From the IMG/VR virus record IMGVR_UViG_3300017766_003084, positions 1 to 50,678 of that record: a stretch of DNA of 50,678 nt. One strand, written 5' to 3'. Of this stretch, positions 1-50,678 are shown piece after piece. Source of the DNA: a virus (taxonomy: Duplodnaviria > Caudoviricetes). Made by a program: the position numbers and the translations under genes. The notes under the pieces were generated by a model that worked only from the letters and a program-made list of their open reading frames with translations, did not search any database and had not been told where the DNA came from. The number at the start of each line of letters is the position of its first letter. Position 1 is the first letter of the stretch.

Positions 1-1
1 A

Positions 2-11
2 TCCGCATGGC
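2..11. repeat. Terminal direct repeat TCCGCATGGC, left copy (putative cos end)
   Basis: Identical to the last 10 nt of the window (50669-50678). The junction lies just upstream of terS. Confidence 0.7.
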
Positions 12-137
12 GTTCCCAAGGGGGGTGGTGTTTCGTCGTGGGGGGTATCCCCTTTGCCGATTGCCGGTTTAATCCATTGCGAGCGAGCGGGAAGCTTCCG
101 CCCCTGAAATTCTTTCAAGAATTCTGGTATCCTGCAG

Positions 138-166
138 TTGTCGATAGTCTGCAGTGCCGATATATT
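138..166 (+). promoter_or_regulatory. Putative sigma70-type early promoter
   Basis: TTGTCG-N17-TATATT upstream of ORF 216, preceded by the repeated element AAATTCTTTCAAGAATTCTG (107-126). Confidence 0.55.
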
Positions 167-215
167 TGTGTGTGGCAAGTGAAACGACAAACGACAAACG
201 AGGGGACGAACGACG

Positions 216-434
216 ATGAGCACAGCAGCAAACATCAACCACATCTCAGTACAGCGAGTGTACCGCACCGGCAACGTCGGAACACGCGTCCGGCTGGCAG
301 AGTACAGCAGCCACATCCGCGAGGCAGTGCTGGCCGACATCGCAGCCACTGGTTGCAGCTACAATCAGATTGTGATCGGTGGCGACTTGTACTGGTACGC
401 ACATGAGACGCCGTGGTTCAGCGGCAAGCGATGA
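216..434 (+). CDS. Hypothetical protein, 72 aa
   Basis: ORF with GAGGGG RBS, downstream of the putative promoter. Confidence 0.6.
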   Translation: MSTAANINHISVQRVYRTGNVGTRVRLAEYSSHIREAVLADIAATGCSYNQIVIGGDLYWYAHETPWFSGKR

Positions 435-586
435 CTGACACCCACCCCGAAACCCCCGAAGCTTCCGAAGCAATCCTAAAATTCTTTCAAGAATTCTGCT
501 GTTCTGGTATTTTCAAGAGTCTAGACTTCCGATATCTTCCGTTATCAGTGTTCTGTCTGTCTGTCTCTTGTCTCTGAGGTTGTGCC

Positions 587-874
587 ATGGAAATTCCCGT
601 AGAACCGTTCATTCTCCCGATGCTGTCTGTCTGTTTTGCTTGTGTGTGTGTGGTGTGTGGATTCAAGCTTTCGAAGCTTGTATTGTGGAATTACGGTTGC
701 GATATACTGCCGTTGCCACGATTTGCCCGCCGGGTACTGTGGTGCTGCGGGGTAAGTTGCAGCACTTGCCCATACGTAGTGGTGCGGGATTGTGGCTCTA
801 GTGAGACGTTTACTCTGAACTGCGAACATACTCCCGAACATACTCCCGATAGTGGCGAAACGTTTATTCTGTGA
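587..874 (+). CDS. Possible small hydrophobic, Cys-rich protein
   Basis: ATG follows the same TCTGAGGTTGT leader as the next two genes, but the sequence is low complexity (TG repeats). Confidence 0.35.
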   Translation: MEIPVEPFILPMLSVCFACVCVVCGFKLSKLVLWNYGCDILPLPRFARRVLWCCGVSCSTCPYVVVRDCGSSETFTLNCEHTPEHTPDSGETFIL

Positions 875-908
875 GTGTCTGTCTGTCTGTCTGTCTGAGG
901 TTGTACCG

Positions 909-1145
909 ATGAAAACTATCGGCGAAATTGCTCGTGTCACCGATCTTTCACCCGATGAAAGTGTTTACCCGCAAAAGGGTGAATTGTGGCGTGTTTACCC
1001 ATGGGCGGTAAACACCAGGGGAACTGCAGGGTTTCAAGTTTCCCGGATGTTCCGCAGAGACGATACGTTGTATGTGGAATCTTCTGGCGGCTCGGAATAT
1101 CCTGTCAGTGGCTCCGGAGCCTATGTCATTCAGCGAATTCGTTAA
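909..1145 (+). CDS. Hypothetical protein, paralogue of 1178-1402
   Basis: Leader TCTGAGGTTGT-N4-ATG. Shares MKTI, DLSP, VSRMF.RD..LYV and GG..Y.VSG with the next ORF. Confidence 0.75.
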   Translation: MKTIGEIARVTDLSPDESVYPQKGELWRVYPWAVNTRGTAGFQVSRMFRRDDTLYVESSGGSEYPVSGSGAYVIQRIR

Positions 1146-1177
1146 TTCTCCCGTTTCTTGTCTCTGAGGTTGTAGCG

Positions 1178-1402
1178 ATGAAAACGATTGCAAAGTGTCT
1201 CTTTCCGTCTGATCTTTCCCCCGGAGAGTACGCCTACCCTGGTGAGCGGCGATACTATGTCAAACGCTTGAGCAATGGCGATAAATGCGGAGTAGTTTCG
1301 CGGATGTTTTCCCGCGACGGAAACTTGTACGTTGATACGTTTGGCGGAAACACATACCGTGTTTCTGGTGACAATCTCGCTTGCCAATTGTGCGTTGAAT
1401 GA
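1178..1402 (+). CDS. Hypothetical protein, paralogue of 909-1145
   Basis: Same leader and shared motifs as 909-1145. Confidence 0.75.
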   Translation: MKTIAKCLFPSDLSPGEYAYPGERRYYVKRLSNGDKCGVVSRMFSRDGNLYVDTFGGNTYRVSGDNLACQLCVE

Positions 1403-1415
1403 AGTTGTGAACGTT

Positions 1416-4070: not shown

Positions 4071-4402
4071 ATCGGGAATAGTGGAATTGAAGATAAACAT
4101 ATACGTTTATCTGCATTCCGGAAATCCAAAAATAGAAGATAAACTGATCCGGATATCCGAATAACAAACCAACCGGCATACAGTCACAAGGCAATCTTCA
4201 ACGGGAGTAACCAACCAATGCAGCGAGAATCCAGAACACGGACAGCAGAGAATCAGCGGATACCCCCCACGGGATTTTTTGGATCAAAAAACAAGTGCGA
4301 TAATTCTTTCAAGATTTAGGTAATCCGGACTTGTCTTTGCTGTCGATGAACGCAATACTCCCCATGGGATTTTTTGGATCAAAATTTCTGAAGGAACAAA
4401 CA

Positions 4403-4741
4403 ATGAAGTGGCCAGCGGAACAGTACGAAATTTTACTCGAAGCGTTCCGGCAGTTTCTGGATTCTTGTGGACGCACTAAACAGCAGATTCGGGAATACTA
4501 CGCTGATCGTCCCGAAGCTGTATTGTGGGATATTTACCGTCAGGTGAGATACGACTTGCAGCACGACGATAACCACCCTGCTTACAAGCCCGGAGTTTTT
4601 GAGGACGGGACACCTATTCGAGCAAGGAAGCGGTTGGTGTCATATTCCCCGAAGTTTGTACTGTATCCGCCGGGGTGTAACGACACACACTTGAAGACTG
4701 CTCTGCAGTCTATCGGCAAGTACCATGACATTTACGGTTGA
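4403..4741 (+). CDS. Hypothetical protein
   Basis: Leader TTTCTGAAGGAACAAACAATG. Confidence 0.75.
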   Translation: MKWPAEQYEILLEAFRQFLDSCGRTKQQIREYYADRPEAVLWDIYRQVRYDLQHDDNHPAYKPGVFEDGTPIRARKRLVSYSPKFVLYPPGCNDTHLKTALQSIGKYHDIYG

Positions 4742-4808
4742 CAACTGGTGAGTGTAACGGGATTTTTTGGGTCAATTTCATTCTCAGAAGTTTCTGAAGG
4801 AACAAACA

Positions 4809-5669
4809 ATGAGCATTTCACGACTGGCTGGCGACAACGTTTACAACAGCGAGAACGATTTCGGCACAGTGTTTCAGTTCTCAGTGTATGGTCCTGCTGA
4901 CACTGCAGAGTGGGTGTACGCTGACGACATTTACGTTGCTGTTGTCGTCCACAAGGGCGGTGATGTTCGTGGCAATTACGGGGCGTGCCGCATGTACAAG
5001 GTCGATGATCTTGTAGATTCAGGGTTCCTCGACTGGACACTGGGCTGGCGTGTTGAATCGACTGATCGTCCCGAAGCACTGTCTGACGATATGGACGAAT
5101 GGACCGATGAACAGATTGCAGAACTGCAGAATGAAGTCTGGGCGGAAGATGAACGACTGAGCGAGCGTTGCAGTCCGGGTTACGCTTCCCTGCCAGCTTC
5201 AGAACTGCCGGGGTATCGCAATTCTGGCAGAGTGTATTGGTATGACGGCAAGGCTTACGTGTTGTATGAAGGTATGTTGTATCGTTCAACACCATACCAC
5301 TGGCACGGTGAAGTCAACACGCCAGACAACGGCACGGGTTATATCTCCGATGCGAACATCGACACTGAGGATTTTTTGAAGCAAACGCTGGGTGAGGAAC
5401 TGCCAAACGTACCCAGCAACGTTGTTGAGAATTGGGATAATTCTGAGGATGAAATCATCCCGTGGATTGAGCAAAGTTGCTACCCGCTGTGCCGCATCTA
5501 CAAGGACGATGTTCAGATTCAAGAAGGTTACGTTGACTCTGACGGCATTCTCTGCGGCACTGACATTGACAGCGAGGAACTGATCGACCTTATTCAGAAC
5601 GGCATTGTGGACGGGGCTGAGTCGGTTGAGTTCGAAGGTGGTGTGTACACGTGGTTAATTGAGGACTGA
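4809..5669 (+). CDS. Acidic hypothetical protein, about 286 aa
   Basis: Same leader. Contains H.GGDVRGNY. Strongly Asp/Glu-rich. Confidence 0.8.
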   Translation: MSISRLAGDNVYNSENDFGTVFQFSVYGPADTAEWVYADDIYVAVVVHKGGDVRGNYGACRMYKVDDLVDSGFLDWTLGWRVESTDRPEALSDDMDEWTDEQIAELQNEVWAEDERLSERCSPGYASLPASELPGYRNSGRVYWYDGKAYVLYEGMLYRSTPYHWHGEVNTPDNGTGYISDANIDTEDFLKQTLGEELPNVPSNVVENWDNSEDEIIPWIEQSCYPLCRIYKDDVQIQEGYVDSDGILCGTDIDSEELIDLIQNGIVDGAESVEFEGGVYTWLIED

Positions 5670-5724
5670 TCAGTACAGCGTTCAGGGGTTTTCATTCTCA
5701 GAAGTTTCTGAAGGGAAAGATGAT

Positions 5725-5949: not shown

Positions 5950-6121
5950 GCCCGCTTATGAGTCCGTGAGATACGGACGAAACACCCTACGGGGTGTCCG
6001 GGTTGTCGATACCCCTACTTCGGATTTTTTGGGAGTAAACAATGACTGTAAAGATTCGAGTCGTGCTGACAGATTTAATCTATGACGGTCCCTGACAGAT
6101 TTTCTGAAGGAACAAACAATC

Positions 6122-6349: not shown

Positions 6350-6369
6350 ATTTTCTGAAGGAACAAACA

Positions 6370-6630
6370 ATGCAGAAGTCACGTAATTGCACAGGGATCA
6401 TTGTGCTCGCACAGAACCGTGTCAGAGATTATCCGGGCTGCATGTATGAACCTCGCATCGAGGGCGAGCAACTGAACGTACAAGCTGTCATGGATGAACA
6501 GGGATCGGGATTGCGTGTTGTGGCTCAGGATAAAAAGTACGGGGGAAAGACTCTCAGACCGCACTCGAAGCGTATTCTGAGCGAGCGGCACTTCTGGGAT
6601 GTATTCAACCAACTGAAGGACTGGAAGTAA
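6370..6630 (+). CDS. Hypothetical protein
   Basis: Leader TTTCTGAAGGAACAAACAATG. Confidence 0.7.
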   Translation: MQKSRNCTGIIVLAQNRVRDYPGCMYEPRIEGEQLNVQAVMDEQGSGLRVVAQDKKYGGKTLRPHSKRILSERHFWDVFNQLKDWK

Positions 6631-7078: not shown

Positions 7079-7756
7079 ATGGCGAATCGAATCAGCAAGT
7101 ATTACGACGAACACGGGAAACTGATCCCGCCACGGAGTAAACGGGCCAGCATGACGGCTGAAGACTGGCTTGGCACTGTCGGACACGTTCCTGCCTCAAA
7201 CGAGACCGGGGAGATGATCCGACAGGTACTCGACAAGTACATGACACAGTACCTCGACAGACTGCAACAGTATTACGTGGACGTAACAGGCATGACAGTC
7301 TCACAGGCTGCTCAGGCCCTGCACAGTAAACATCACGGGGAACACCGTATCCGCGAATCTCTCACCGTGACTGTTTCTGGAAAGAAAAAGACTGATCCGG
7401 AGATTGTGTACACCTTCTCCGAGTATGACTTGCTGAGAGTCAACTGGGAGATCGCAGACAAGGTTTACAGGTCAGCGAAGAACCGTATCGACACCAACAC
7501 AGCGGACGATATGGACAGGAAGCTGTGGGTGCTGATCCACTCACTCAAGACTGTCGATGCTGACGGGATTGTGCTGTGGAGGATGTATGCTGACACAGAG
7601 GATGAAGGCAGGGACTGTTGCACATTCGCTCTGTGTGACATTGTGGAAGATCATAAGACTATTCGTGCTAAAGAGGGATTCGCTTCCTCGATGAGTGCGA
7701 TAACGCTTATGACACTTGTGAAAGCGTTTTACCGTGTTGGTCAACTGGGGTCTTAG
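7079..7756 (+). CDS. Hypothetical protein, about 225 aa
   Basis: GGGAG RBS followed by AAAAAACAATG, long ORF. Confidence 0.75.
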   Translation: MANRISKYYDEHGKLIPPRSKRASMTAEDWLGTVGHVPASNETGEMIRQVLDKYMTQYLDRLQQYYVDVTGMTVSQAAQALHSKHHGEHRIRESLTVTVSGKKKTDPEIVYTFSEYDLLRVNWEIADKVYRSAKNRIDTNTADDMDRKLWVLIHSLKTVDADGIVLWRMYADTEDEGRDCCTFALCDIVEDHKTIRAKEGFASSMSAITLMTLVKAFYRVGQLGS

Positions 7757-7773
7757 GATTTTTTAGGAGAAAA

Positions 7774-9839: not shown

Positions 9840-10369
9840 ACCTCCTTTTGTTTGTCCATCAGCTTTACCAGCATATCGACGTAGTGCAGTGCTTTATGCA
9901 CGTCTGTGTGAGCACTGTCTTTGTGACCCATACGCATCAGGTACTTCAGAGCATTGCCGCGAAGGAATCCTCTGAGTTCTTCCGGACTCATGCAGGATTC
10001 CATCACGTCAATCGGTTGATGCTTCATCTTCTTGTAATGGTCTCCACCAACCTGCATGTTGCCCGTGAGTGTTTCTGAAGAAGTAGACTGTGGTTTTTCA
10101 GGTGCTTGTGGAGGAAGTGGGAAGTCGGGCAGACGCGATACGATGTCGCACTGTGAATTTCCCGGATTGTCGTTTAGAAAATTACCTACAATGTCCCAGA
10201 TGTGATCTGTGTCTACCTTGTCGCCGTCTATAATCTCACCTTCCCAAGGCCACTCTGCCTTATCTTCTTCGCAGTGGTTTTCTCGAATGCACGCTATGAG
10301 ACCGTTTCTCAACAGATACCTGCCCGGCCTTAAAGGCAGTTCCAGAGGGGTGGTCTTTTGCTCGCTCAT
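9836..10369 (-). CDS. DUF3310 / T7 gp1.7-like protein (putative nucleotide kinase) with N-terminal extension
   Basis: QVGGDHY...IDVM...GFLRGNALKYLMRMGHK...DVHKALHY. Confidence 0.8.
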   Translation of the reverse strand: MSEQKTTPLELPLRPGRYLLRNGLIACIRENHCEEDKAEWPWEGEIIDGDKVDTDHIWDIVGNFLNDNPGNSQCDIVSRLPDFPLPPQAPEKPQSTSSETLTGNMQVGGDHYKKMKHQPIDVMESCMSPEELRGFLRGNALKYLMRMGHKDSAHTDVHKALHYVDMLVKLMDKQKEV

Positions 10370-10650: not shown

Positions 10651-11932
10651 TGAGCACCTTCAGGAAAGCATCCTTGATGTAGGGGTTACAGTGGAGATGG
10701 GGAACTGACCGACCACGTGCCGGTCGATGTGTTTCTGAGTCAGTAGTAAGTATGCCGAGAGATTCCAAATCGTCAATACGACGACTGATGGTCTCCAGCG
10801 GAATGTTGCAAAGTGCGGCGATCGACTGACGGTTCAGCCCTTTGCTCTTTGCAATGGTACTGATGATGTTGAACTGTCTGCCGTAACTGGTGTCCTTACC
10901 GACTTTGATCAGCAGTGAGCGAATGCGAGGTGTGATCCTTGTTTCGCTCAGAACGTAACAGAGGCACAGTGCCAGACGAGACAACTGCTTTACGACTCGT
11001 GTACTGCCCTCCGGGGAAGCGTCGTACAGGAGTTCTGAAGGTGAACCATGTTCTCTGACTCGGGGTGCCTGAGCACGACTGCAGGCGATTACGTCACCGA
11101 TAGCCTGAATCAGAGACTTGTCGGACTGTGTGTATCCGGGACGCAGGATCTCTTCGTTCCTGATTCGAGTGTGCAGATGACTCAGCAGTCCTGCAGTGTA
11201 GGCACGTTGCTTAGGGAAACTGCGGGAGTCTCCTGCTTCGTTACCTTCCAGATTGGTACGGGCAGCAGACTGAAAGATCGAGTCGATAGCACGACTGTTA
11301 CGGTCTACTTCCACGTCTCGGGAGGTGTCCAGTCGGCAGTGAAGGAATCGCTCGCCGAGTGCAGACATGTTCAGCGAGTAGATTCGTTCCGTTATGCCAA
11401 TGACCATACCGAATGAGATGTTACTGAATGAAGCTGAGACACCGTTGCGGTACTCAGCGTTCAGTGAGCCGTCAAAGATGTCTCGCAGTTCCCCGTAGAC
11501 GTTTGCCAGTTGCTGCTGTGATGACTCCAAGAGAAGCGTGCCGTCCTTGATAACGACACACTTCCCCTGAAGCATGGGGATCAGGTGAGTGCCCTGACGT
11601 GACCCAGACACAAGCCCGGTGAACTTACTCAGACTTCGAGTGTGAATCTCGTCCGAAGCGATCAGTTCGCAGATTGTAGACTTCCCGCTCGATGGAGCAC
11701 CGACAAGGTAAATCCACAACGGATCACCTTCCAGAGCCACAGCGAGATGAGTTGCCATACAGATTGCAAGACAGTCCTCAAGTGATTGAGTAACAGACAT
11801 ATCCTGTCTGTAAATCTCGATCAGTTTGTGGAATGACGTACAAGCTTGCGGCTGAATGCTTACAACCTCGCTCAGATCAATTTCTGAGAGAGAAACTCTA
11901 ATCAGGTCAACGAACTGTGTCGGGGTAGTCAT
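10589..11932 (-). CDS. P-loop (AAA+-like) ATPase, putative replicative helicase, with C-terminal winged HTH
   Basis: Walker A GAPSSGKS, LGERF Arg-finger-like motif, C-terminal HTH (RQSIAALCNIPLETISRRIDDLESLG), directly downstream of the primase. Confidence 0.7.
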   Translation of the reverse strand: MTTPTQFVDLIRVSLSEIDLSEVVSIQPQACTSFHKLIEIYRQDMSVTQSLEDCLAICMATHLAVALEGDPLWIYLVGAPSSGKSTICELIASDEIHTRSLSKFTGLVSGSRQGTHLIPMLQGKCVVIKDGTLLLESSQQQLANVYGELRDIFDGSLNAEYRNGVSASFSNISFGMVIGITERIYSLNMSALGERFLHCRLDTSRDVEVDRNSRAIDSIFQSAARTNLEGNEAGDSRSFPKQRAYTAGLLSHLHTRIRNEEILRPGYTQSDKSLIQAIGDVIACSRAQAPRVREHGSPSELLYDASPEGSTRVVKQLSRLALCLCYVLSETRITPRIRSLLIKVGKDTSYGRQFNIISTIAKSKGLNRQSIAALCNIPLETISRRIDDLESLGILTTDSETHRPARGRSVPHLHCNPYIKDAFLKVLNENPNRPNPRPKPRPRTSGG

Positions 11933-11933: not shown

Positions 11934-12698
11934 TCAGGTTCTCATTGTGTTCCAGAGGTCGCGGATATCAAACTTGTCAGGAATGGTTTCTGAAGAAGGA
12001 ATAGATACCTTAGTCCAGTCGAGGTATGACAGCGACTCGACTGAGATACCAGAACCTTTCAGACGACGGGCGACTGACTGGACTCCTGACTGTCCCGCTT
12101 CATCGTTGTCGAACAGCAGGACGACTTTCTTCCCGTCCAGCAGGTGCAGGTACGACTGACTGAAACTGCTGCCGCAAGTCCCCAGCAGATCAATACCTGT
12201 AGACTTCAGAACCTGACGCATGATAAGATAATCGGCGTGTCCTTCTGCCACCCAGATTTCTGAAGAAGAAGATAATTGGCTCAATCCGAGGATGCTGCAG
12301 TTCCACGGCTTTGGACTGCTGTAAGCAATGTTGTTCTGCGGATTGTACTTGTGCAGAGCGATCAATTTGCTGTCAGCGTTGTAGACCGGGAACCAGTAGT
12401 ATCCTGAATCAAATCGTACTCCCTCACTCCTGAGTGTTTGGAATACGACACCCTTCTTTCTGTTCAGAAATTCACGAGCGGCTGGAGGTGAGAGTTCCGG
12501 AAGATCGTCGTAGAACTTACGCATCAAAGTCAAAGCGTTACCTGACTCTTTACACTTCCAGCACTGGTATACGTTACCTTCTGCCTTGCGGACAGACATC
12601 TTCTCAGAGGCACACCAAGGACAAGTGATGTTCCAGTCGTCGCCGTTGTTTTTGTAAGGCATTTCGAGGTGATCAAATAGTTTCATTTCCGCGGTCAT
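11934..12698 (-). CDS. DNA primase (Zn ribbon + TOPRIM)
   Basis: CPWC...CWKC, WVAEGHAD and LLFDNDEAG. Confidence 0.9.
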   Translation of the reverse strand: MTAEMKLFDHLEMPYKNNGDDWNITCPWCASEKMSVRKAEGNVYQCWKCKESGNALTLMRKFYDDLPELSPPAAREFLNRKKGVVFQTLRSEGVRFDSGYYWFPVYNADSKLIALHKYNPQNNIAYSSPKPWNCSILGLSQLSSSSEIWVAEGHADYLIMRQVLKSTGIDLLGTCGSSFSQSYLHLLDGKKVVLLFDNDEAGQSGVQSVARRLKGSGISVESLSYLDWTKVSIPSSETIPDKFDIRDLWNTMRT

Positions 12699-12919: not shown

Positions 12920-13619
12920 CAGGTTCTGTTGGTTGAGTGGTGACGCCGATCATCTTGTTGACTGCTGGGTAGAAGTTATTATCTACCTCAGTGAAAGGTA
13001 AAGCCTTAAACAAAGCAGATAAGCTATTAAGGAACGGCCTTCCTTCAGCACGAAACAACAGTTCTGCAATACCGACAGCAATCATACGGATTTCACGCTG
13101 AGCATTACTGGCAGATCGCAGAGAGTAGAAGTGCATGAACGACCGCATGTTGAACTGCACAACAGATTCAATCTGTGTGGTGTACGGCAGAAAGTAACGA
13201 GCAATTTCTTTTGCTCGCTGTCGTCCCATCGTTGCTGTCAGTGAGGTGCAGGTTTGATGGTAAAGTTTTGCACAGATTTCATGGTGCATGTGTAATGCGT
13301 TCATCACTTCAGTAGGGCAGTCGTCAGGAATAAGGAACTGATCTTCCTTACGCTCCTTGTAGCGTGCTGACTGACTGTTGATACTGACTCCGACTCGATG
13401 CTTCAACAACTGAATGTGTGTCGCTACGTCAACGACGATGCGAACACGGAACGAAGCCTGTTCGAATGGAGTGTGGTGCCCGTTCCTGTACAGCCAAGCG
13501 ATGAAGTCAGGTACCCGATTCTTACGTTCCTCGGTAAGTTCTGAAGAAGTAGATGTCCATGCTGCCAGTGCGATGGTGGTGTCGTTGCCCTGAATGTCGA
13601 GTAGTTCAATTGTGTTCAT
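12888..13619 (-). CDS. thyX: Flavin-dependent thymidylate synthase
   Basis: GHHTPFEQ, QLLKHR...SINSQSARY, ARYFLP, NMRSFMHF..LR, AQREIR. Confidence 0.92.
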   Translation of the reverse strand: MNTIELLDIQGNDTTIALAAWTSTSSELTEERKNRVPDFIAWLYRNGHHTPFEQASFRVRIVVDVATHIQLLKHRVGVSINSQSARYKERKEDQFLIPDDCPTEVMNALHMHHEICAKLYHQTCTSLTATMGRQRAKEIARYFLPYTTQIESVVQFNMRSFMHFYSLRSASNAQREIRMIAVGIAELLFRAEGRPFLNSLSALFKALPFTEVDNNFYPAVNKMIGVTTQPTEPDGGFARGYDN

Positions 13620-17435: not shown

Positions 17436-17466
17436 AGTTCACCTTCAAACTTTCTGAGAAAAGAAA

Positions 17467-18435
17467 TCACATGCCCAACACAGCACACAGGTTTTTGTAC
17501 GTCTCGGCGGCGTTTTCACCGCAGTCAATCTCACTCTCACCAGTCGGTGTTACCCACGACTTCGCAATGTAGTACGTGGACGGAGAGATACCGATAAATC
17601 GGCGGTCGCCCAGCGTTTTCTTCTTCTTCGTCTTTTCGTCGATAGTCACGTTGACCATCTGACCCATGAAGTAAACGCCGTGCAACTTCTTCTTCGTGAA
17701 CGACCAGATGCGACTGAACAACTGAGGTTCATACTGCTGGAAGTCAGGACCAACTGGATTGTCAACCTGTCGGTAGACGCTGTGAGCCAGCAGGATGACG
17801 TTGTAGCCCTTGCGGACAATCTTCAGGCAGAGACTCAGGAACTGAGCATCCCAATATGCTTCAGCAGCTTTGATGTAGCCGCCGTAGAATGAGAGGTAGC
17901 CGTCCTTCGCTTTGCTCGACATGTCACCCTTGTACAGCTTGCTGGCACAGTGCTGGAAGCACAGTTCCTGCAGTCCTGACACAGAGTCGATGATCAACGT
18001 CTTGCGACCGTGGTTCGCATTGAGGAAGCGGTCCATTGTCTTAAGGCACTTGTCCCAGCCGGGGTGTCCGTCGCCGTCAGGAATCGAGTCCTGTTCGTAG
18101 ACATCTTCCAGCGGGACGATTGTTACGTCACGTGGAATCAGGCCACGCTCTTTGTAGATTGCTGCACCGTGTTCACCACTGGTTGTAATGAACATCGGCT
18201 TTTCGAACTGAGAAGCCAACGTCGTCTTGCCCATACCGGCTTCTGAGTAGAACATCAGAAACCTGCCGAAGTGCTCTTCATCACCGACAAGATCGGCGAA
18301 TGGATCAGTCCCGGACTTCACGACTTTTGCAGCCATTGCTGGCCGCTCGTTGCCGATCTGCACAGAAGGCATACGACCTGATGGAACAGGTGCCTTCTTT
18401 GCTGGAGAACGTGGGGGTGGTTGTTTCGTGGTCAT
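17467..18435 (-). CDS. AAA_24 / Sak4-like ATPase
   Basis: Walker A SEAGMGKTT, Walker B LIIDSV, NVILLAH. Confidence 0.8.
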   Translation of the reverse strand: MTTKQPPPRSPAKKAPVPSGRMPSVQIGNERPAMAAKVVKSGTDPFADLVGDEEHFGRFLMFYSEAGMGKTTLASQFEKPMFITTSGEHGAAIYKERGLIPRDVTIVPLEDVYEQDSIPDGDGHPGWDKCLKTMDRFLNANHGRKTLIIDSVSGLQELCFQHCASKLYKGDMSSKAKDGYLSFYGGYIKAAEAYWDAQFLSLCLKIVRKGYNVILLAHSVYRQVDNPVGPDFQQYEPQLFSRIWSFTKKKLHGVYFMGQMVNVTIDEKTKKKKTLGDRRFIGISPSTYYIAKSWVTPTGESEIDCGENAAETYKNLCAVLGM

Positions 18436-19882: not shown

Positions 19883-19909
19883 GGAAAGTTCCCTCTGTAA
19901 TTTCTGAGA

Positions 19910-19966
19910 AAGAAAAGGCAGTGGCCAGCACGATGCCCACCATAACATCAGATACTGACCACTGCC
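19910..19966 (-). terminator. Terminator or attenuator upstream of the csrA-like gene
   Basis: GGCAGUGGUCAGUA...UGCUGGCCACUGCC hairpin followed by UUUUCUUU on the - strand. Confidence 0.65.
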
Positions 19967-33600: not shown

Positions 33601-34255
33601 GGCTCACCTTCGTCCAATCTTCTGCGATGTAACGAATTGCCCGCATGTCGTTCAACAGGTTCAGATCTCGCAACTGACAGTAGCCCTGTGGAAGTTCTGA
33701 GACAGAACCATCAGAGATCGCGTCACGATACTCGAACAGATGATATGCGAGGATCATCAACGCTCGGACAGTCGCCTTGGGAACTTCTGAAAGAGAAGAA
33801 TACCCAGTTGTGTACGTGACTGTAATCGGATACGGCAGTTCGTCGTCGATATCAACGAACAGAGCAGTCCAGTCTTTGCAAAACAGCTTGGCCGGTTCAT
33901 ACTCGTAGACTGTGTATCCGGCAGACGAAACACTCGCTGTTGTGCCGTCAGTTTTCTTGTATGTGAACGTCGTCAGTGTGCTCACTTTGCCAAAAGGCAG
34001 GAACACGAGACGGTCTGCAGACATGAAGGCTTCGTAAGGCAACTGGAGAGTAACAGGCTTACGAAGGATGAACCTCCACTGCTCCTTCTCACAGATCGAG
34101 ATGCACTGGTGCATCAATTCAGAAATATCGACAGGAATATCCGTGTCGGCTGTCTCGGTGTCAAAGCCAAGATTCTGTTTGATCTGAGCAATCAGGGTGC
34201 TTGTCACAAGTGTTGAGACAGCATCTTCCTGAGCGAGGTTGACGTACATTGGCAT
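33593..34255 (-). CDS. Head-tail connector (gp6/gp15-like)
   Basis: ITVTYTTGY...VP....ALMILAYHLFEYR. Confidence 0.8.
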   Translation of the reverse strand: MPMYVNLAQEDAVSTLVTSTLIAQIKQNLGFDTETADTDIPVDISELMHQCISICEKEQWRFILRKPVTLQLPYEAFMSADRLVFLPFGKVSTLTTFTYKKTDGTTASVSSAGYTVYEYEPAKLFCKDWTALFVDIDDELPYPITVTYTTGYSSLSEVPKATVRALMILAYHLFEYRDAISDGSVSELPQGYCQLRDLNLLNDMRAIRYIAEDWTKVSRG

Positions 34256-36474: not shown

Positions 36475-37185
36475 TTATTGTGCCAGATTTCTCCTGACAT
36501 TCAAGACTCGCATTCTCAGCGATTGAAGGTCTGGAGTTTCAACCTGAGCCTTATTCAGTGCTTCCCGAGGGATTTCCAAACAGTTCAACATGGCAGTCTC
36601 AGGTTTGCCATTTCGAACCGAATGAAACAGTCCCTTAGAGACCGCCTCAGAAGCACTGAGGTAAGTTTCCTTGTCGAGCATATCAATCACTTCCTCTTCC
36701 TTCAAGGGAGTTCTGGAAGTGAAGATGTTCTTAATGCTGTCACGGTGAGCCGTCCAACGCTTCGCTGCGTTTTCAGCAGAAGCCTGACTGTCGATCTTTT
36801 CGTACATGTATGGGTTGTGCATCATGAACAGTCCGCCGTTGCAGATCTGTCGGTTTGATCCGGCCAGAGCCAGCCATCCCGCAGAACTGAAGGCATACCC
36901 GTCTACGATGGTTGTAACAGTTCCTCGGTGCTCAAGCAACTGATTGTAGATTGCCAGAGCAGAGCCGACTTCACCACCGTTTGAATTGATGCGTACAGTG
37001 AGTTCTGCAGGAGCATCCTTCAGAAAGTTGAGCACGTCGGACGGAGTCACAGACGTGTCGCCGTCGTAGTATTTCTGAGGAAGAATGTAGTCATAGATGA
37101 GCAACTCGTTCTGTGCGTTGAACGATGCTCGGGTTTCCATTTGCTCGCCGCTGGGCAGAGTCTTACGATTCAGAACCAGTACCAT
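36475..37185 (-). CDS. ClpP-like (S14) prohead protease
   Basis: RINSNGGEV, DGYAFSSA, FMMHNP, ETYLSASEAV..G. Confidence 0.9.
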   Translation of the reverse strand: MVLVLNRKTLPSGEQMETRASFNAQNELLIYDYILPQKYYDGDTSVTPSDVLNFLKDAPAELTVRINSNGGEVGSALAIYNQLLEHRGTVTTIVDGYAFSSAGWLALAGSNRQICNGGLFMMHNPYMYEKIDSQASAENAAKRWTAHRDSIKNIFTSRTPLKEEEVIDMLDKETYLSASEAVSKGLFHSVRNGKPETAMLNCLEIPREALNKAQVETPDLQSLRMRVLNVRRNLAQ

Positions 37186-41954: not shown

Positions 41955-43571
41955 TCAGTTATCAAAGACAATGTCCGATGAACTTTCGAATGACATAACG
42001 TCTGTCCCAGTTCCGGACCATGTGAATTTCAGTGTGGCTGTGTATCTGTAACCCAACAGCCCTTTGGCAGTTTCTGAAGAAGAAATCTCTACACGAACGT
42101 ACGGAGCATTGGCAGTGCCGGTTCCCGGAGGATTGATAACCGTTGCTGTTCCATTGACGATTCGCGATGCGTTTGTCTCTTTCGCCCTGCTTACAGTGAA
42201 TGTAACAGTTGCTGCTGAAAAGTCGAGTGAGCCTGCTGTATCAAGCGGGATACCGTCAGTATCCACAATAGGTATATCAATTGCTCGACCATTGGCAGCA
42301 GTGTAGCTGTCACCGATCTTCAGCGTTGTCGGGAAGCCTTGAATGGTTCCCGGCTCAAGCACTGCTCCTGCGAGTAATGAAGTAACAGCACCAGAACTAG
42401 TAATCAGATCCGTCTTGTTCTGTATCAGGTCCAACTGATCGAGGATCAGTTCCTGATTTTGCAGTGTTGCTGATCCACCACCTGCTCCTGCAGGGCCATT
42501 CTCCAGCATGTTGACAGTAAACTGCCATACAGCACCGTCCTGTACCAGTCCTGTGTTTACACGGTCTGTGACAACCTTGATTGCAGCGATACCCGAGTTG
42601 TCCGGGGCCGTGTAAGCACTCGAAGCAAGTCGAGACAATACGTTGTTATTTATTGTCGTCTGATTGTCGAGAGTCGCCAACCCTGACTGGATCTCTGTGA
42701 CCGCACTTGCTGCAATTGCGTTAGCACTAATCACGTCCGTCTGAAACTCATGCACGTCTGCCGCTATATGGTTACTGCCTGTGACCTGCACAGTCCGGTT
42801 ATTGTTCAACGCCAGAATAAATCGCACGCCATACGATCCGCTCACAGTGTGATCGGCTGGCAGTGCTGCGTACACGCCAGTGACAACCTGTGCCACTGTC
42901 GGCGGTGTCGTGTAGCTTGCTGTGGGCAACGGCATACCTGTCACCGTCACGCCGCCCCACTGATCCGTGTTTGCTGTGACTCGTGCCGTCACCGATCCGA
43001 CTGCCCCTGTCACGCTGCCCACAGCACCCGTAACAGATCCCACAGCCCCGCTCACACTCGCGACCGCCTGCGTCGTGCTGATTGTCGTCCCGCTGAGATT
43101 CAACGTCGTCGTCGGATTCTCGACGTTGCCTAAGTCGATCCCTGCCGCACCTGTTGCCGTAACGTCGAGCGTTCGCCCTGCAGTCGTTGGCCGCAGTGCT
43201 CCGAATGCGTCGGTCTGGTAATCGACCGCATCCAACTCGATGTAAATGTTCACAGGTGCCATATTGTTAGCACCTCGCAATTGGATCGCGACCCCGTTCC
43301 CGCCGTCTAGTGCTGCGTCCGGAATGCCGATTTCATACCACCCGGGCATGTTAGCATTGTCGACCGCGATGAACCCGCCGCTCGCGTATGTGCCAAGCGT
43401 TGCCGTTGCCAGCGTTATCGGCACCTCGTTGTTCAGGTCGCCTGCAAAATAATAGGCAACCAATCCGCTCGAATTGTAGACCAAATTCGCCAACCCGCTG
43501 CCGTCTGTTTTGCTGGTGTCAGCTATGAATATCAATCGCCGAACTGAGGTAGACCCTCGCTTAATTTTCAC
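41955..43571 (-). CDS. Putative virion fibre or accessory structural protein, 538 aa
   Basis: G/T/A/S/V-rich, three tandem V(T/S)GAVGS repeats, a short coiled coil and a beta-rich C-terminal domain. Confidence 0.6.
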   Translation of the reverse strand: MKIKRGSTSVRRLIFIADTSKTDGSGLANLVYNSSGLVAYYFAGDLNNEVPITLATATLGTYASGGFIAVDNANMPGWYEIGIPDAALDGGNGVAIQLRGANNMAPVNIYIELDAVDYQTDAFGALRPTTAGRTLDVTATGAAGIDLGNVENPTTTLNLSGTTISTTQAVASVSGAVGSVTGAVGSVTGAVGSVTARVTANTDQWGGVTVTGMPLPTASYTTPPTVAQVVTGVYAALPADHTVSGSYGVRFILALNNNRTVQVTGSNHIAADVHEFQTDVISANAIAASAVTEIQSGLATLDNQTTINNNVLSRLASSAYTAPDNSGIAAIKVVTDRVNTGLVQDGAVWQFTVNMLENGPAGAGGGSATLQNQELILDQLDLIQNKTDLITSSGAVTSLLAGAVLEPGTIQGFPTTLKIGDSYTAANGRAIDIPIVDTDGIPLDTAGSLDFSAATVTFTVSRAKETNASRIVNGTATVINPPGTGTANAPYVRVEISSSETAKGLLGYRYTATLKFTWSGTGTDVMSFESSSDIVFDN

Positions 43572-45579: not shown

Positions 45580-46023
45580 TTATCGAGTAAACCCCATTTC
45601 CGCAAGGATATTTTTCCAAGAGCCTGAACTGTATCCGGTTCTGACTCTCACAATACCGTTTTTGTCGGTATATCTGAATGCGGGAATCATCGTTGGGGCA
45701 TCCTTCCATCGCTCATACTTGAGAGTAATCGGCAGATCTTTGACAGCAGCAAACTCTCGTTTCGCCAGTTGACACGGAGCACACCAGTCAGCAGAACTGA
45801 CCTGCAAAACCGGCTTGCCGTCGATATTTTCTGAAGAAGTAATTGATTGTTTGGCTGCTTCGAGGGCAGTCACCCGCTCTTCCAGTGCATCGAGCCGTTT
45901 GAGGATCAGCAGGCTGTCAGCAGACGCTGCAGGACTCTGATTACTCTCGTCACTGACGATCTCGGGAAGGGCCAGCAACAGACAGACAGACACGATTGCA
46001 CAGGCTGTAAACCACTCTTTCAT
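45580..46023 (-). CDS. Exported or membrane-anchored thioredoxin-like protein
   Basis: N-terminal hydrophobic signal, coiled coil, SADWCAPCQ active site, IPAF cis-Pro-like motif. Confidence 0.8.
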   Translation of the reverse strand: MKEWFTACAIVSVCLLLALPEIVSDESNQSPAASADSLLILKRLDALEERVTALEAAKQSITSSENIDGKPVLQVSSADWCAPCQLAKREFAAVKDLPITLKYERWKDAPTMIPAFRYTDKNGIVRVRTGYSSGSWKNILAEMGFTR

Positions 46024-46889
46024 AGTATGTATCCTCCACCAGCTTGAGTTCGTTTGTAGTACCGCTCGACAGGTTTGTCGGGCAGCAGTAAGTATGCCCC
46101 AAAAGGCTCGTACTTCATCTTCGCCAATTGGTCATACACCTTACGGGGTATGTAAAAGTATTCGTCGTTATGGCTGTTCCATGAGATGAAGTACCAGTCT
46201 GATTTGATCATCTCAGCCCAGATGATCGTGGTAGCGTGACCACCACCTCTTGTTGGAGGTGTAGCCATCACTTTCTTACCGTTGATCTGACTGCCCTCTC
46301 TGAACGGCCAGAAGGTACCTTGATGCAGGTTTCCGCCTGCAGCAAGACCGGCCAACAGAGATTCACTGTCAGGTGCTGGACGATGCTCAGTGACAAGTCC
46401 ATCCTGCAACTTGACTTTCTTGGCCCTTGCAACAAACCTGCTCGCAGAACGCTCGTAGGTGCCGTAAGGCCAATCAGTTTCAAGCGGAATACCCGGACCA
46501 ACACCGATAGACGGAATGCCTTCAGTCTGCAGTGTTACGCCAGCTTCAATCCATGTCCCACCGTCCTTACCGACTTGGTTGGGGGACATGATGTATTCAC
46601 TGGCGTTGTAGGCAAACGTGTCTGATTTCTGAGGAACTTTACCAGACGATTCATCAACTTCACCGCCTGAAACGTACCACCATCGTCTTTCGTTACCAGT
46701 GCAGGCTGAGTGAGCCTGGCAGTCGTTCTGTGTCTGATTCTGACGCCGCATGTACGGGCGAGGATCATTCTTCGGATCTTTTAGTACATCTTCCCAATTG
46801 GTGAAGTCAGAAGCCTTGACTGGGGGTTTTGCTTTCCTCAGCAAGGCTTCCTGTACTGCCGGATCTGACTTTAGCAGTTCACTCGGCAC
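46020..46889 (-). CDS. Papain-like (C1) cysteine peptidase
   Basis: NQTQNDCQAHS (oxyanion Gln and catalytic Cys), DGGT, WPY, GGHAT (His), WNSH (Asn). GGAGG RBS precedes a GTG start. Confidence 0.8.
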   Translation of the reverse strand: MPSELLKSDPAVQEALLRKAKPPVKASDFTNWEDVLKDPKNDPRPYMRRQNQTQNDCQAHSACTGNERRWWYVSGGEVDESSGKVPQKSDTFAYNASEYIMSPNQVGKDGGTWIEAGVTLQTEGIPSIGVGPGIPLETDWPYGTYERSASRFVARAKKVKLQDGLVTEHRPAPDSESLLAGLAAGGNLHQGTFWPFREGSQINGKKVMATPPTRGGGHATTIIWAEMIKSDWYFISWNSHNDEYFYIPRKVYDQLAKMKYEPFGAYLLLPDKPVERYYKRTQAGGGYIL

Positions 46890-47559
46890 TGAAGTACCTC
46901 CTGATGTAAAGTGCGTGTTTTTCTGGTGTCCACTGCTCTCCGCCAAACTCCAGTTCTTCAGCAGTCAACAGACTTGTGAATGCCTTGACCTGACATTGAC
47001 GGTGAGCAGCCTTGAACCAGTCAGCCGCTTCCTCTTCCGACGAGATGACTTTGTTTTCCAGTCGAGTCGCCAGTTCCTTTTGTGCCAGTCGCCATTCACG
47101 CTCATACACCCTGAAAGCCTTAGCGACATCGTCTTTTGGCTCTACAGGGCCGGGAGTAATGGGATCGGGCTTCGGAACGTCGATAACGTCCAGAAGGCGT
47201 CTGCGAAGGCTCTGACGGCCTTTACTGCCCTCGGGACGATACATGATCTCGACACGACCTGTTGCCTGTCCTTCGAGCACGTACAGGAACGGAGAATCAG
47301 CAACAAGTGTCTGTATGCCGGATTGACCGGCAAATTTACCTCGAAGTCGAGTTCCCGTAGGAACTTCTTCGATAGTGACTATGCCTGCAGGAGAATCGAA
47401 AACGTCAAGAGGAACGGGACTTTGAATCAAGTACCATTCCTCTGTCGTGAATTTGTCGATTTCTGCAGGTGGCTTGGGCGTGTCCGCCTTGATAGTTTCT
47501 GAAGGAAAAACAATAACAGGTTCCTGCAGCAAACAAGCCAGCAGCAGAAGAAACTTCAT
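46879..47559 (-). CDS. Exported protein with Pro-rich linkers
   Basis: MKFLLLLACLL signal-like N-terminus, PKPDPITPGPVEP, GGAGG RBS. Confidence 0.7.
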   Translation of the reverse strand: MKFLLLLACLLQEPVIVFPSETIKADTPKPPAEIDKFTTEEWYLIQSPVPLDVFDSPAGIVTIEEVPTGTRLRGKFAGQSGIQTLVADSPFLYVLEGQATGRVEIMYRPEGSKGRQSLRRRLLDVIDVPKPDPITPGPVEPKDDVAKAFRVYEREWRLAQKELATRLENKVISSEEEAADWFKAAHRQCQVKAFTSLLTAEELEFGGEQWTPEKHALYIRRYFSAE

Positions 47560-47560
47560 G

Positions 47561-48526: not shown

Positions 48527-48554
48527 TTGATCGGTACGATAATCTTGATAGAAT
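48527..48554 (+). promoter_or_regulatory. Putative promoter of the right-end + strand cassette
   Basis: TTGATC-N16-TAGAAT upstream of an AAGGAG RBS. Confidence 0.5.
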
Positions 48555-48582
48555 TTCCGTACCTCGCGAACGAAAGGAGCGA

Positions 48583-48789
48583 ATGACAATGGCTGCTGAA
48601 ACAGTAGGGATCTCAGCTACGGCTGAGTTCTGGAGAAAAGTAGATGCACTGTCGCGTCAGACTGGTCAGTCTCGCAGTGCTGTGATCGTGGAGACATGCT
48701 GTGAAGCATGGAATGTGAGAGGGCTGGTGTCCAAGCCTGTTGGTCGTCCGAAGAAGCATAAGGGCGTGAAGAAAGTGAAAGGTGCTTGA
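48583..48789 (+). CDS. Ribbon-helix-helix (CopG-like) DNA-binding protein with GRP (AT-hook-like) tail
   Basis: TVGISATAEFWRKVDALSRQTGQSRSAVI...GRPKK. Confidence 0.75.
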   Translation: MTMAAETVGISATAEFWRKVDALSRQTGQSRSAVIVETCCEAWNVRGLVSKPVGRPKKHKGVKKVKGA

Positions 48790-48790
48790 T

Positions 48791-49024
48791 ATGGCTGATA
48801 CATGCCCGAAGTGCAATGCTCCGTTCAGACGACACCACACTGGATTCCACTGTGGGACAGAAGTGGATGAAAGCAGCGGTTCAGTGATACAGAGTCCACT
48901 GTGCCGTCAGACAACTCTGGAACGAGAACATCAGGAGATGCGTAGACTCCTGACTGAAGTGATCAGTGCGAAGGGAAAGATCCCTGATAATCTACAGAAA
49001 CAGATTAAGGAGATGTTGGGATGA
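48791..49024 (+). CDS. Small putative Zn-binding protein
   Basis: CPKC...HCG...C. Confidence 0.6.
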   Translation: MADTCPKCNAPFRRHHTGFHCGTEVDESSGSVIQSPLCRQTTLEREHQEMRRLLTEVISAKGKIPDNLQKQIKEMLG

Positions 49025-49608
49025 GCGTGCAAGTATGTGAAGGAGTTTGGCGGACTCGGTGCGGGCAGCGGCTGCTGATTACGCAATGCGAACCGGTCGA
49101 TTTCCAGCGGTGGACGGACGGCGTGGATACGTACAGCGATGATGGGTCGTATTCGATTTGGGGTACTGGTCGCGAAAGCCCGCATGATCTGGTATCGTTC
49201 GTCGGGCTGCTGCCGGACAAGCCGCAGTCGGATCAGACAGCCGAGATTGATCGACTGAAAACAGAACTTTTACAGTTACAGGCGAGCGTGCCAAAAGCTG
49301 CTGTAGAAATTGATCGACTGAACAAGGTTTTAGGGGGACAAGCAGGTGTCATCGACTCTTTGAAGGAGTCGAACGAAAGGCTGGTGAATGAGGCTCTACA
49401 GGCACAGCAGTATGTGTCTGAAGCGAACGAGAAGATCAATCAGCAATCAACTGAAATAAAGCGGTTGAATCGGAATGTGGAGGAATTCGAAAGAATCGAC
49501 GAGCATAAGGATTCGGAGATTGATCACCTGCGACAACTCCGAAGAACGAACGATGCGATCATCAAAGAATTCAGGGAACTGTTGACGCACGCATTGTCCA
49601 AGAAGTAG
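49021..49608 (+). CDS. Coiled-coil hypothetical protein, 195 aa
   Basis: N-terminal WRTRCG...DLV domain, then repeated EIDRL heptads. Confidence 0.75.
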   Translation: MSVQVCEGVWRTRCGQRLLITQCEPVDFQRWTDGVDTYSDDGSYSIWGTGRESPHDLVSFVGLLPDKPQSDQTAEIDRLKTELLQLQASVPKAAVEIDRLNKVLGGQAGVIDSLKESNERLVNEALQAQQYVSEANEKINQQSTEIKRLNRNVEEFERIDEHKDSEIDHLRQLRRTNDAIIKEFRELLTHALSKK

Positions 49609-49659
49609 TCGCTGTGTTGGCGGCTCAGACCACGAGTATTTCTGAAAAGGAAGATTGTT

Positions 49660-50031
49660 ATGCCGGGCAGTAAAGGTAAAGGTAACGGAGTTGGTGTCGA
49701 GCAGATTCTTGCAACGAACGCATGGTTCGCGACACACAAGAACGAATTGCACAACTTGACTCGTGCTGAGATTTCAAAGCGAATCAAGGCGGATACCGGA
49801 ATGACCATCGGCACTCGCACTATCATTGCAATGCGAAAGCAGCATGAGATTCGCAGTCGAACTATAGGCACACCGGGGAAAACGTCAGCACTGAAGCGAC
49901 TGGCCATTGCTGAGGCTAGGATCACCAAACTGATTGAAATTTCGATTATCGTACACGAAACGATGGTCAGTTTGGGCGAAGCATCAGCAGCACGTCGGAT
50001 TGAAAGCCTGCTGGCCAGCAAGGCAGAATAG
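49660..50031 (+). CDS. Basic hypothetical protein, possibly DNA binding
   Basis: AGGAAG RBS. LTRAEISKRIKADTG helix pattern. Confidence 0.65.
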   Translation: MPGSKGKGNGVGVEQILATNAWFATHKNELHNLTRAEISKRIKADTGMTIGTRTIIAMRKQHEIRSRTIGTPGKTSALKRLAIAEARITKLIEISIIVHETMVSLGEASAARRIESLLASKAE

Positions 50032-50047
50032 TTTCTGAGAAAGAAAC

Positions 50048-50545
50048 TCAGCGGAAGTATGTGATTCCAGCAAACTCAGTGAGGGTTTGCTGGATCACTG
50101 CTGGTGCAGACACTGCATCAGGATTTGCAAGATACACGATGTCACGTGGAGACATCCCGATCTTTTCCATCAGCTTCAACATGATGACCTGATTGCGATT
50201 GAGGATATTCACCATCGGATTCGGGAACGTGCCAAGATAGTTCCCCTCTTCGTCAACACGATCGAAGGTGTATCCGTTCTTGCCGATGTTCTCCCGACAG
50301 GTATGCACGACATGCCAAGTCTCTACTAACTCAGAAACTATCAAGGTGTACGTCGGGCTGAGACATCGGCGTGACTCCATGTCCGTCACGATGAAGTCCC
50401 ACATCTTCTTCATTGCAGGGTTGTTCACAATACGCAGAGGTACAGGCATCTGAGATGCACTGCAGGTCTCTACGTCAATATCTCGCGGTGCAACATCAGA
50501 GAAGATAGCCAACTCCGTTGCAGTCTTACGCTTTCGTGGTGCCAT
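50048..50545 (-). CDS. terS: Terminase small subunit (P27-like)
   Basis: KMWD.I....., GYT, NPMVNIL..., IGMSPRD pattern, adjacent to the genome end. Confidence 0.8.
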   Translation of the reverse strand: MAPRKRKTATELAIFSDVAPRDIDVETCSASQMPVPLRIVNNPAMKKMWDFIVTDMESRRCLSPTYTLIVSELVETWHVVHTCRENIGKNGYTFDRVDEEGNYLGTFPNPMVNILNRNQVIMLKLMEKIGMSPRDIVYLANPDAVSAPAVIQQTLTEFAGITYFR

Positions 50546-50668
50546 GACATCATCCTTCAGGGGTGTGAGATCCAATGGCACCATTTGACACGATACTGGT
50601 ACGGTTTGTCAACAATCTCCTGCAACAATCACCCAGACCGCCCCCATAACAGCAACTTTGCGTCTGTT

Positions 50669-50678
50669 TCCGCATGGC
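50669..50678. repeat. Terminal direct repeat TCCGCATGGC, right copy
   Basis: Identical to positions 2-11. Confidence 0.7.

Follow-up and report, generated by a model that had tools for sequence, protein, structure and literature searches.

A polar TTTCTG-purine word on one strand of the genome of an uncultured freshwater phage and its relatives

We analysed the word TTTCTG followed by a run of purines in a 50,678-base window, which is the whole of IMG/VR record IMGVR_UViG_3300017766_003084, a Caudoviricetes genome of the linear class with a CheckV completeness estimate of 97%. Genes lie on the + strand at 1-8.3 kb and 48-50 kb, where most are short open reading frames (ORFs) without known family, and on the - strand from 9.8 to 48 kb. 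Public runs with the window (20 listed, none of them of RNA, on the evidence of assembled Logan contigs) come from freshwater, drinking-water and wastewater metagenomes. A blastn search of phage records with 7 kb of the window gave no match, and a tblastn search of such records with the capsid and polymerase proteins gave distant matches alone (identity at most 32%) and no cultured close relative. A preliminary description had listed TTCTGA with a purine run at 26 + strand positions, with few reverse copies, and had proposed that it is a directional signal at the DNA level, analogous to Chi or to FtsK-orienting polar sequences (KOPS).

Strand polarity and form of the word in the window

An exact count of TTCTGARRRR in the whole window returned 32 copies, 27 on the + strand and 5 on the - strand (8598, 21110, 23679, 30319 and 37025), so that reverse copies are not equally frequent. 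Dinucleotide-preserving shuffles (n = 100) gave a mean of 3.32 (sd 1.75, maximum 8), and 0/100 reached 32. The form TTTCTGRRR was split 27:3 (+:-), and TTTCTGAAG, at 15:1, was the most strand-skewed of all 9-mers in the window. Copy density is ~1 per 1.9 kb (0.5 per kb). The preliminary description numbered its positions from the T before TTCTGA; 25 of its 26 are exact + strand matches, 31159 is not (it reads TTTCTGAAGGTA, three purines and then T), and two + strand copies, with TTCTGARRRR at 37073 and 46627, had been missed.

Codon and amino-acid usage did not account for this polarity. The 38 minus-strand ORFs (35,208 nt) hold 17 antisense copies of TTCTGARRRR, a number reached by 0/1000 synonymous-codon shuffles (mean 1.86, maximum 7) and by 0/1000 codon-order shuffles (mean 1.07). 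As a control, the same ORFs hold 3 copies in the sense orientation versus 2.1 after shuffling, and 344/1000 shuffles reached 3. Purine runs of at least 8 nt have TTTCT before them in 14/78 cases on the + strand and in 0/131 on the - strand. Because the strand is kept in both gene blocks, the codon shuffles are exceeded and sites are conserved above background in relatives (see below), we conclude on sequence evidence that the word is a selected, DNA-level polar signal, as had been proposed. The observation is real and strong.

The copies in the window are as follows (coordinates, strand, context; RBS, ribosome-binding site).

4385..4405, +, TTTCTGAAGGAACAAACAATG; purine run is the RBS of a + ORF, ATG 9 nt past the 9-mer
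4791..4811, +, identical 21-mer; ahead of the ATG of a 286-aa + ORF
5705..5722, +, ahead of a + ORF ATG
6101..6121, +, ahead of a + ORF ATG
6352..6372, +, identical 21-mer; ahead of the ATG of an 86-aa + ORF
7374..7391, +, TTTCTGGAAAGAAAAAGA; sense, within + ORF 7064-7756
10072..10089, +, antisense in - ORF 9836-10405
11881..11898, +, antisense, 5' end of the helicase-like gene
11987..12004, +, antisense in the primase gene
12257..12274, +, antisense in the primase gene; kept in 3/3 distant relatives aligned there
13538..13555, +, GTTCTGA...; antisense in a thymidylate-synthase-like gene
14748..14765, +, ATTCTGA...; antisense in the DNA polymerase gene; kept in 4/6 distant relatives
15690..15707, +, antisense in the DNA polymerase gene
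17451..17468, +, gap between two - genes, just upstream (- sense) of the RBS of 16629-17435
18567..18584, +, antisense in a PD-(D/E)XK nuclease-like gene
19901..19918, +, 19 nt upstream (- sense) of the CsrA-like gene start at 19882
22116..22133, +, antisense, 3' end of a radical-SAM-like gene
23283..23300, +, antisense in - ORF 22997-24061
24644..24661, +, antisense in - ORF 24042-25397
25336..25353, +, weaker copy, TTTCTGGAAATG...
29638..29655, +, weak copy, TTTCTGAAGTCT..., with a short purine run; probably background
31159..31176, +, TTTCTGAAGGTAAGAG; not an exact TTCTGARRRR match
32414..32431, +, CTTCTGAAGGAACAAA; antisense in - ORF 32049-32516
33784..33801, +, antisense in - ORF 33593-34273
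37072..37089, +, antisense in ClpP-like protease ORF 36475-37227; kept in 12/27 distant relatives
42071..42088, +, antisense near the 3' end of the gene upstream of terL; kept in 9/9 distant relatives
45828..45845, +, antisense in - ORF 45580-46023
46626..46643, +, antisense in - ORF 46020-46946; sole site lost in a close relative
47496..47513, +, overlaps alternative - ORF 46879-47721; uncalled in the greedy gene model
49639..49659, +, ahead of the ATG of + ORF 49660-50031
50032..50049, +, between the convergent ends of + ORF 49660-50031 and terS

At five early + copies, which lie 9-12 nt ahead of + ORF ATGs, the purine run serves as the RBS, an overlap that had been noted before; three of the five are the same 21-mer. 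Copies in the - block are antisense within genes or in short gaps just upstream of - gene RBSs. The positions at 17451, 19901 and 50032, which had been cited as places where the word cannot be an RBS, are indeed intergenic and outside + strand translation starts. Among the 17 genic TTCTGARRRR copies, 13 place a Y-rich codon before TCA GAA, in agreement with the S/P-S-E peptides reported to recur in - genes.

The full word is ~18 nt long: TTTCT, then G and 9-10 purines, then Y-A. In the site alignment TTTCTG is nearly invariant and is followed by purine-only positions, with either purine accepted over 9-10 of them, and the whole carries ~19 bits of information. Counted from the G, the purine run is bimodal in length, with 1-3 nt at background TTTCTG and a peak at 10-11 nt for the word. 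Among 84 runs of at least 7 nt in five genomes, 24 were 10 nt, 16 were 11 nt, 12 were 9 nt and 14 were 7 nt long; the next base was T in 51 and C in 33, usually followed by A (TA 24, CA 23). A Shine-Dalgarno-like tail with GGA is present in 18/31 window copies and missing from 13/31; tails of the other kind include GAAGAAG and GAGAAAGAAA, and TTTCT-GAAGAAG was read in six window copies. Since only half of the tails are Shine-Dalgarno-like, purine content, and not ribosome binding, is their common feature. A small hairpin in which TTTCT pairs with the purine run was no stabler than with permuted runs (-2.57 versus -2.26 kcal/mol; 40/84 sites lower, P = 0.10).

Conservation and drift among relatives

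Searches with the capsid and polymerase proteins yielded 70 IMG/VR loci (843,538 bases), in which the word is antisense to genes 174 times versus 25 times sense. Five near-complete relatives (G001-G005, the window being G000), with capsid proteins 66-76% identical, were taken whole. Their TTTCTGRRR counts (+:-) were 26:2, 38:4, 17:1, 26:3 and 11:2, and nowhere along the six genomes does the word switch strand. In the - genes of G000-G004 we counted 15, 18, 28, 7 and 16 copies, versus synonymous-shuffle means of 3.3, 2.6, 4.8, 2.1 and 2.9; the observed counts were reached by 0, 0, 0, 1 and 0 of 300 such shuffles. TTTCTGRRR in the - genes of G005 showed no excess over synonymous shuffles.

Sites were kept in 46/47 site-by-relative comparisons at 92-96% DNA identity (control 0.81) and in 37/97 at ~68% (control 0.134). 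The comparison with related phages that had been suggested earlier thus found polarity kept in all five relatives and sites conserved above background. Turnover is uneven, some sites being fixed (42071) and others changing. The tail drifts while TTTCTG stays: it is GAAGGA in the window, GAGG in G001 and G003 and GGGAG in G004, and GAGGAAG, GGGAGAG and GGGAGTAAT are also found among relatives. G005 has the tail CTGGGAGTAAT and the variant (T)TCTGGGAGTAAT; CTG followed by 3-8 purines and TAAT is split 17:1. Related ...GTAAT words are present in three further loci (L019, L046 and L066). In the literature on polar words, Chi in phage genomes and primase-site strand bias, we found no description of this word.

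The 145 + strand copies in the six genomes comprise 88 inside - genes, 21 at + ORF starts, 5 inside + genes and 31 in other gaps. An apparent peak 120-155 nt upstream of - gene starts was set aside, as it partly consists of the same orthologous sites counted in different genomes. With the wider pattern, 46/94 copies in the six genomes show the codon-phase preference, which is absent in G003 and G004; such a preference is what a DNA word would show when fitted into genes in the frame of lowest cost, and does not point to a peptide motif.

A 36,805-base phage contig of the clade (L090) is binned in a 'Caulobacter sp.' metagenome-assembled genome (MAG), a weak, bin-based host assignment. Another contig of that bin, C242, in which the word is present 6 times in a single orientation, is probably also of phage origin. 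No tRNA, looked for as a host clue, was found in the window.

Oriented replication sites and rival explanations

Family scans with Pfam and PHROG covered ~70 window ORFs, many of which are without any family. The genes that they and other models name are the following.

10589-11932, -, P-loop helicase-like protein with a predicted C-terminal winged helix, primase partner (Pfam and Atlas model); candidate reader of the word
11934-12785, -, DnaG-type primase, CHC2 zinc ribbon and Toprim (family scan); candidate reader of the word
14551-16548, -, DNA polymerase A (family scan)
17467-18435, Sak4, adjoined by a PD-(D/E)XK-like protein (family scans)
36475-37227, -, ClpP-like prohead protease, missed by the greedy gene model
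50048-50584, small terminase, terS (family scan)
Major capsid protein, portal and large terminase, named by family scan

We tentatively suggest that the copies may serve the phage's own pair of primase and helicase-like protein as oriented loading or start sites. Replication as the process, and this pair as the reader, are what we infer from what was observed: the word and its polarity, the selection on DNA, conservation with drift among relatives, and a composition bias along the whole strand. Uniform polarity, though genes lie on both strands, points to something that travels one way along the DNA; the drift of the tail between relatives, and a word ~40x rarer per kb in a candidate host bin, point to a reader encoded by the phage. 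At third codon positions of G000, G001, G002 and G004 the sense strand has G>C in + genes and C>G in - genes, and the strand component amounts to a surplus of G on the + strand (+0.05 to +0.15), joined by a small surplus of T. Such an excess of G over C characterises the strand that a replication fork leaves single-stranded. Because the + strand G excess would mark the strand that is single-stranded at a one-way fork, the word would lie on the lagging-strand template, which in bacteria is the place of KOPS and Chi as well. It would then act in cis along the entire phage chromosome, always from the same strand, and be read by a protein of the phage's own while replication proceeds in one direction. 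Copies that face the same way would make every loading or priming event send synthesis in one direction and, at about one every 2 kb, would allow discontinuous synthesis on the + strand template to restart everywhere.

Both candidate readers are present in 5/5 relatives, the helicase-like protein at 65-73% and the primase at 53-60% identity. In the helicase-like protein Pfam matches HTH_24 at residues 353-395 (E 1.6e-5), and phage primase-helicase fusions resemble its Atlas model in their C-terminal (helicase) halves (template-modelling score, TM, 0.76-0.81); relatives of the protein in viral contigs belong to the same clade alone (17 loci, 64-100% identity). Such a C-terminal domain binds origin repeats in the P4 alpha protein, and the C-terminal gamma domain of FtsK is a winged helix. 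Primases of the DnaG/T7 type read, on single-stranded DNA, a template trinucleotide with a cryptic 3' base; that of E. coli DnaG is CTG, which lies in the invariant core of G000-G004 and in the G005 variant. The phage resembles DnaG/T7 gp4-type systems in its zinc-ribbon and Toprim primase, in a core that ends in CTG, in site spacing of about Okazaki-fragment length and in a purine run of about primer length. Known primase sites, in contrast, are 3-5 nt long, and an 18-nt composite word would be new for the class. The product of 19975-21204, named before as a possible ParB-like loading protein, does not bear out that label: Pfam gave 0 families at E<=0.01, its PHROG (5931) is without known function, and Atlas offered a weak lead to ParB_N.

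In form the word does resemble KOPS, as had been suggested. The L. lactis KOPS, GAAGAAG, is a purine heptamer found once per 2.1 kb, with >91% skew in the dif region, and is bound by the FtsK gamma domain (PMC3384302). The phage word, at ~1 per 1.9 kb, shares with KOPS and SpoIIIE recognition sequences (SRS) the character of a short polar purine word that is over-represented, occurs ~1 per 2 kb and lies >90% on the G-rich strand. The FtsK/SpoIIIE reader is a winged helix at the C-terminus of a ring ATPase, and the phage helicase-like ATPase ends in a predicted winged helix. KOPS polarity, however, inverts at the origin and dif, whereas the phage word has no switch in six genomes; it also has an extra TTTCT head and is not enriched in the candidate host bin, itself an uncertain host. 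Scans of the ~70 window ORFs found no FtsK-like gene.

Several observations weigh against oriented replication sites. Early versus late gene class is a confounder of the third-position skew, which G003 does not show (+0.011) and which is not measurable in G005; where present, the skew suggests a rightward fork, which would run head-on into most transcription. Spacing of copies is mildly regular in G001 (P = 0.007) and G002 (P = 0.036) and not significantly so in the four others. T7 primase sites, [GT]GGTC, are without strand bias (118:117), and primase sites are thus not known for polar enrichment. Our structure prediction for the helicase-like protein was poor (4 sequences, predicted local distance difference test, pLDDT, 41), and the winged helix thus rests on Pfam and the Atlas model. 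Inside + genes there are 5 copies versus 13 expected at the density of - genes, a rarity not expected of a pure DNA signal, except under selection against internal runs that resemble ribosome-binding sites. Finally, G003 carries a second one-strand word, (T)GACAGTAA(T), split 18:0 on the same strand as TTTCTG, and this word is without CTG.

By analogy with known phage nick sites, a real if lesser possibility is that a phage nickase cuts the + strand within the word, for example between TTTCT and G, making programmed single-strand nicks in packaged or replicating DNA. The nick sites of tf/LUZ24-like (TACT/RTGMC), phiKMV-like and T5 phages are likewise asymmetric words on one strand of genomes with genes on both, and in phages they are the only one-strand words independent of gene orientation that experiments have established. 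For tf, the published study reports 14 nicks, all on the top strand and within TACT/RTGMC, in a genome of two convergent gene sets, and similar site positions with a shifted consensus in relatives (PMC3517423). Our recount of the tf record gave 14:0, with several annotated nick sites on co-oriented gene starts (sci1, sci4, sci11) and two inside opposite-strand genes; this is the layout of the window, with copies at + gene starts and inside - genes, and partial positional conservation with turnover is seen in this clade too. Known nick words, however, are exact 7-19-mers with 4-14 copies (PMC3517423), and that of tf is an exact 9-mer, whereas here a hexamer with a degenerate 10-nt purine tract occurs in 17-38 copies; tf is also without the third-position strand skew (-0.02). 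The scans of ~70 ORFs found no nickase-type nuclease family, their nuclease-like matches being the PD-(D/E)XK-like protein beside Sak4 and the LAGLIDADG domain of a terL intein. Contigs of four public runs, aligned to the window, marked no points at which molecules start or stop. Contig ends coincided with the word in 0/88 cases with 1.1 expected, too few to discriminate. We consider it improbable that an asymmetric regulator bound at the word blocks or permits RNA polymerase by direction, as at stoperators, so that early + genes would be shut at their starts and leftward late transcription spared. The stoperators of Cluster A mycobacteriophages, read by L5 gp71-type repressors, resemble the word in being >20 asymmetric sites, many in short intergenic gaps; they are 13-mers across the genome whose orientation follows transcription and whose reversal abolishes the effect (PMC9283540). 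The 21 copies exactly at + ORF starts in the six genomes and the ~19 bits, which suit a protein site, are in line with such a regulator. Against it, the word follows the DNA strand in both gene orientations, with 88/145 copies inside genes; any-purine positions would be unusual for major-groove base reading; and stoperators go with a cognate immunity repressor and temperate growth, but no integrase or repressor family was found in the ~70 scanned ORFs, many of them without any family.

We give an equally low probability to an action at the RNA level, in which the word in early + mRNAs would be a translation start region (UUUCUG, a Shine-Dalgarno-like run and an A-rich spacer) and its complement in late - mRNAs (a Y-run and CAGAAA) would pair with these start regions or bind a factor, turning early translation off. 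CsrA-type proteins bind GGA, which 6/6 early copies have, 9-12 nt ahead of the ATG, and the window encodes a CsrA/RsmA homologue (19685-19882, -; 65 aa, beginning MLCLSRR; Pfam CsrA E 1.5e-8, 34.9 bits versus a cut-off of 27). Of the window copies, only those of the + block are in sense mRNA. An arginine of this homologue aligns with the RNA-binding arginine of E. coli CsrA, and a phage-encoded global translation regulator is unusual. The under-representation inside + genes (5 versus 13 expected) and the single codon phase favoured in - genes (46/94) also suit this explanation. However, the csrA-like gene, kept at 86-94% identity in two close relatives, is absent from G001-G005, all of which have the word; the 13/31 window copies without GGA do not suit it; 5 sense copies do lie inside + genes, where - strand copies do not build up; tails in - genes often differ from the early start region where A-C mismatches would result; and the hairpin is no stabler than with permuted purine runs. 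It is less probable still that late mRNAs, with ~20 copies of the complement, act as an antisense sponge on early start regions, possibly with CsrA-type proteins, and so stop early synthesis; if true, phages would have an mRNA-to-mRNA timer acting in trans, of a kind not described for them. Just as doubtful is a polar word read by the host, Chi-like (RecBCD/AddAB) or KOPS (FtsK), and copied by the phage for DNA protection or handling. In its favour, the word shares with Chi and KOPS on leading strands an excess of copies, polarity and a place on the G-rich strand (PMC3384302). Its purine tail nevertheless varies among related phages, it never switches strand whereas KOPS and Chi do so at origin and terminus, and a weak gp5.9-like RecBCD-inhibitor match (E 1.4e-4) would make Chi unnecessary. 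A 3.9-Mb MAG with a related phage contig has 50 copies versus 35 of a control word, or ~0.013 versus 0.5 per kb in the phage; the sole candidate host bin, an uncertain host, thus shows no enrichment and does not support this explanation. That the word is a functionless by-product of composition, codon usage or duplicated early-gene leaders is hardly credible: three identical early 21-mers may be duplicates and TTCTGA alone is just 2-fold over shuffles, but synonymous and codon-order shuffles never reach the window count, polarity and counts recur in five diverged genomes with sites conserved above background, and TTTCT-preceded purine runs of at least 8 nt are confined to the + strand (14/78 versus 0/131). 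In our assessment the host Chi/KOPS, stoperator and RNA-level explanations are weaker than those by a primase-helicase pair or by nicks.

Other features of the genome and meaning of the word

The large terminase (38977-41940, -) is 987 aa long, enlarged by an intein-like insert at residues ~344-432 (Hom_end E 3e-9, LAGLIDADG_3 E 3.4e-7). The insert lies upstream of the match to the Pfam ATPase model (residues 493-630) and inside the stretch matched by the PHROG terminase (from residue 115). The radical-SAM-like protein (22084-23007; Pfam E 7e-6, under the cut-off) clusters with three no-family ORFs at 21308-25397 (-), possibly a DNA or nucleotide modification module. G001-G004 all have this cluster; G005, which also differs in its word variant, lacks 3/4 of the cluster's genes, among them that of the radical-SAM-like protein. 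Residues 108-142 of the + strand product of 49021-49608 weakly match a PHROG family of T7 gp5.9-like RecBCD inhibitors (E 1.4e-4), and the gene is not in G001-G005.

The convergent junction of the gene blocks, 8.4-9.8 kb, is a hypervariable stretch, where contigs from other samples break, skip 76-642 nt or hold unrelated letters; a strong two-way terminator hairpin (8406-8436) flanks it. The record ends (1-12 and 50667-50678) have the 10-mer TCCGCATGGC in common. Contigs of G001, G002, G004 and G005 end at the same place, ~100 nt past the terS start and beside repeat-rich DNA, and this shared end region could be a collapsed terminal repeat, a cos/pac region or an origin. The 127-nt overlap with which G003 self-closes probably stems from assembly. 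A perfect (AGTG) x 8.5 tandem array at 3763-3796 gives rise to strand-skewed GTGAGTGAG words. The early-region word GGATTTTTTGG has 8 copies with one mismatch allowed, all on the + strand at 4.2-8.5 kb (4272-8443), versus 0.7 expected. It often follows a G+C-rich hairpin, 10-30 nt ahead of the TTTCTG word, is present in the early regions of G001 and G004 too, and probably marks terminator tails or early promoters.

Bacteria rely on Chi and KOPS to organise repair and segregation. To our knowledge, genome-wide one-strand words are reported from very few phages, namely T5, phiKMV-like phages and tf, as nick sites whose purpose is still unknown. That a phage can carry such a word is therefore already known; new here are its two-part architecture, its copy number, the strand-wide skew and a candidate reader. 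The word is seen across a whole clade of abundant uncultured freshwater phages in a clean form, TTTCTG and a purine tract of fixed length, with selection, drift and a strand-wide composition bias. The primase and the winged-helix helicase-like protein, as concrete candidate readers, make it possible to test how a phage signals direction along its chromosome. If the replisome is the reader, this would be the first case of a viral replication motor guided in the manner of KOPS; should the sites prove to be nicks, they would widen an enigmatic class of nick sites, with the cut site predicted.

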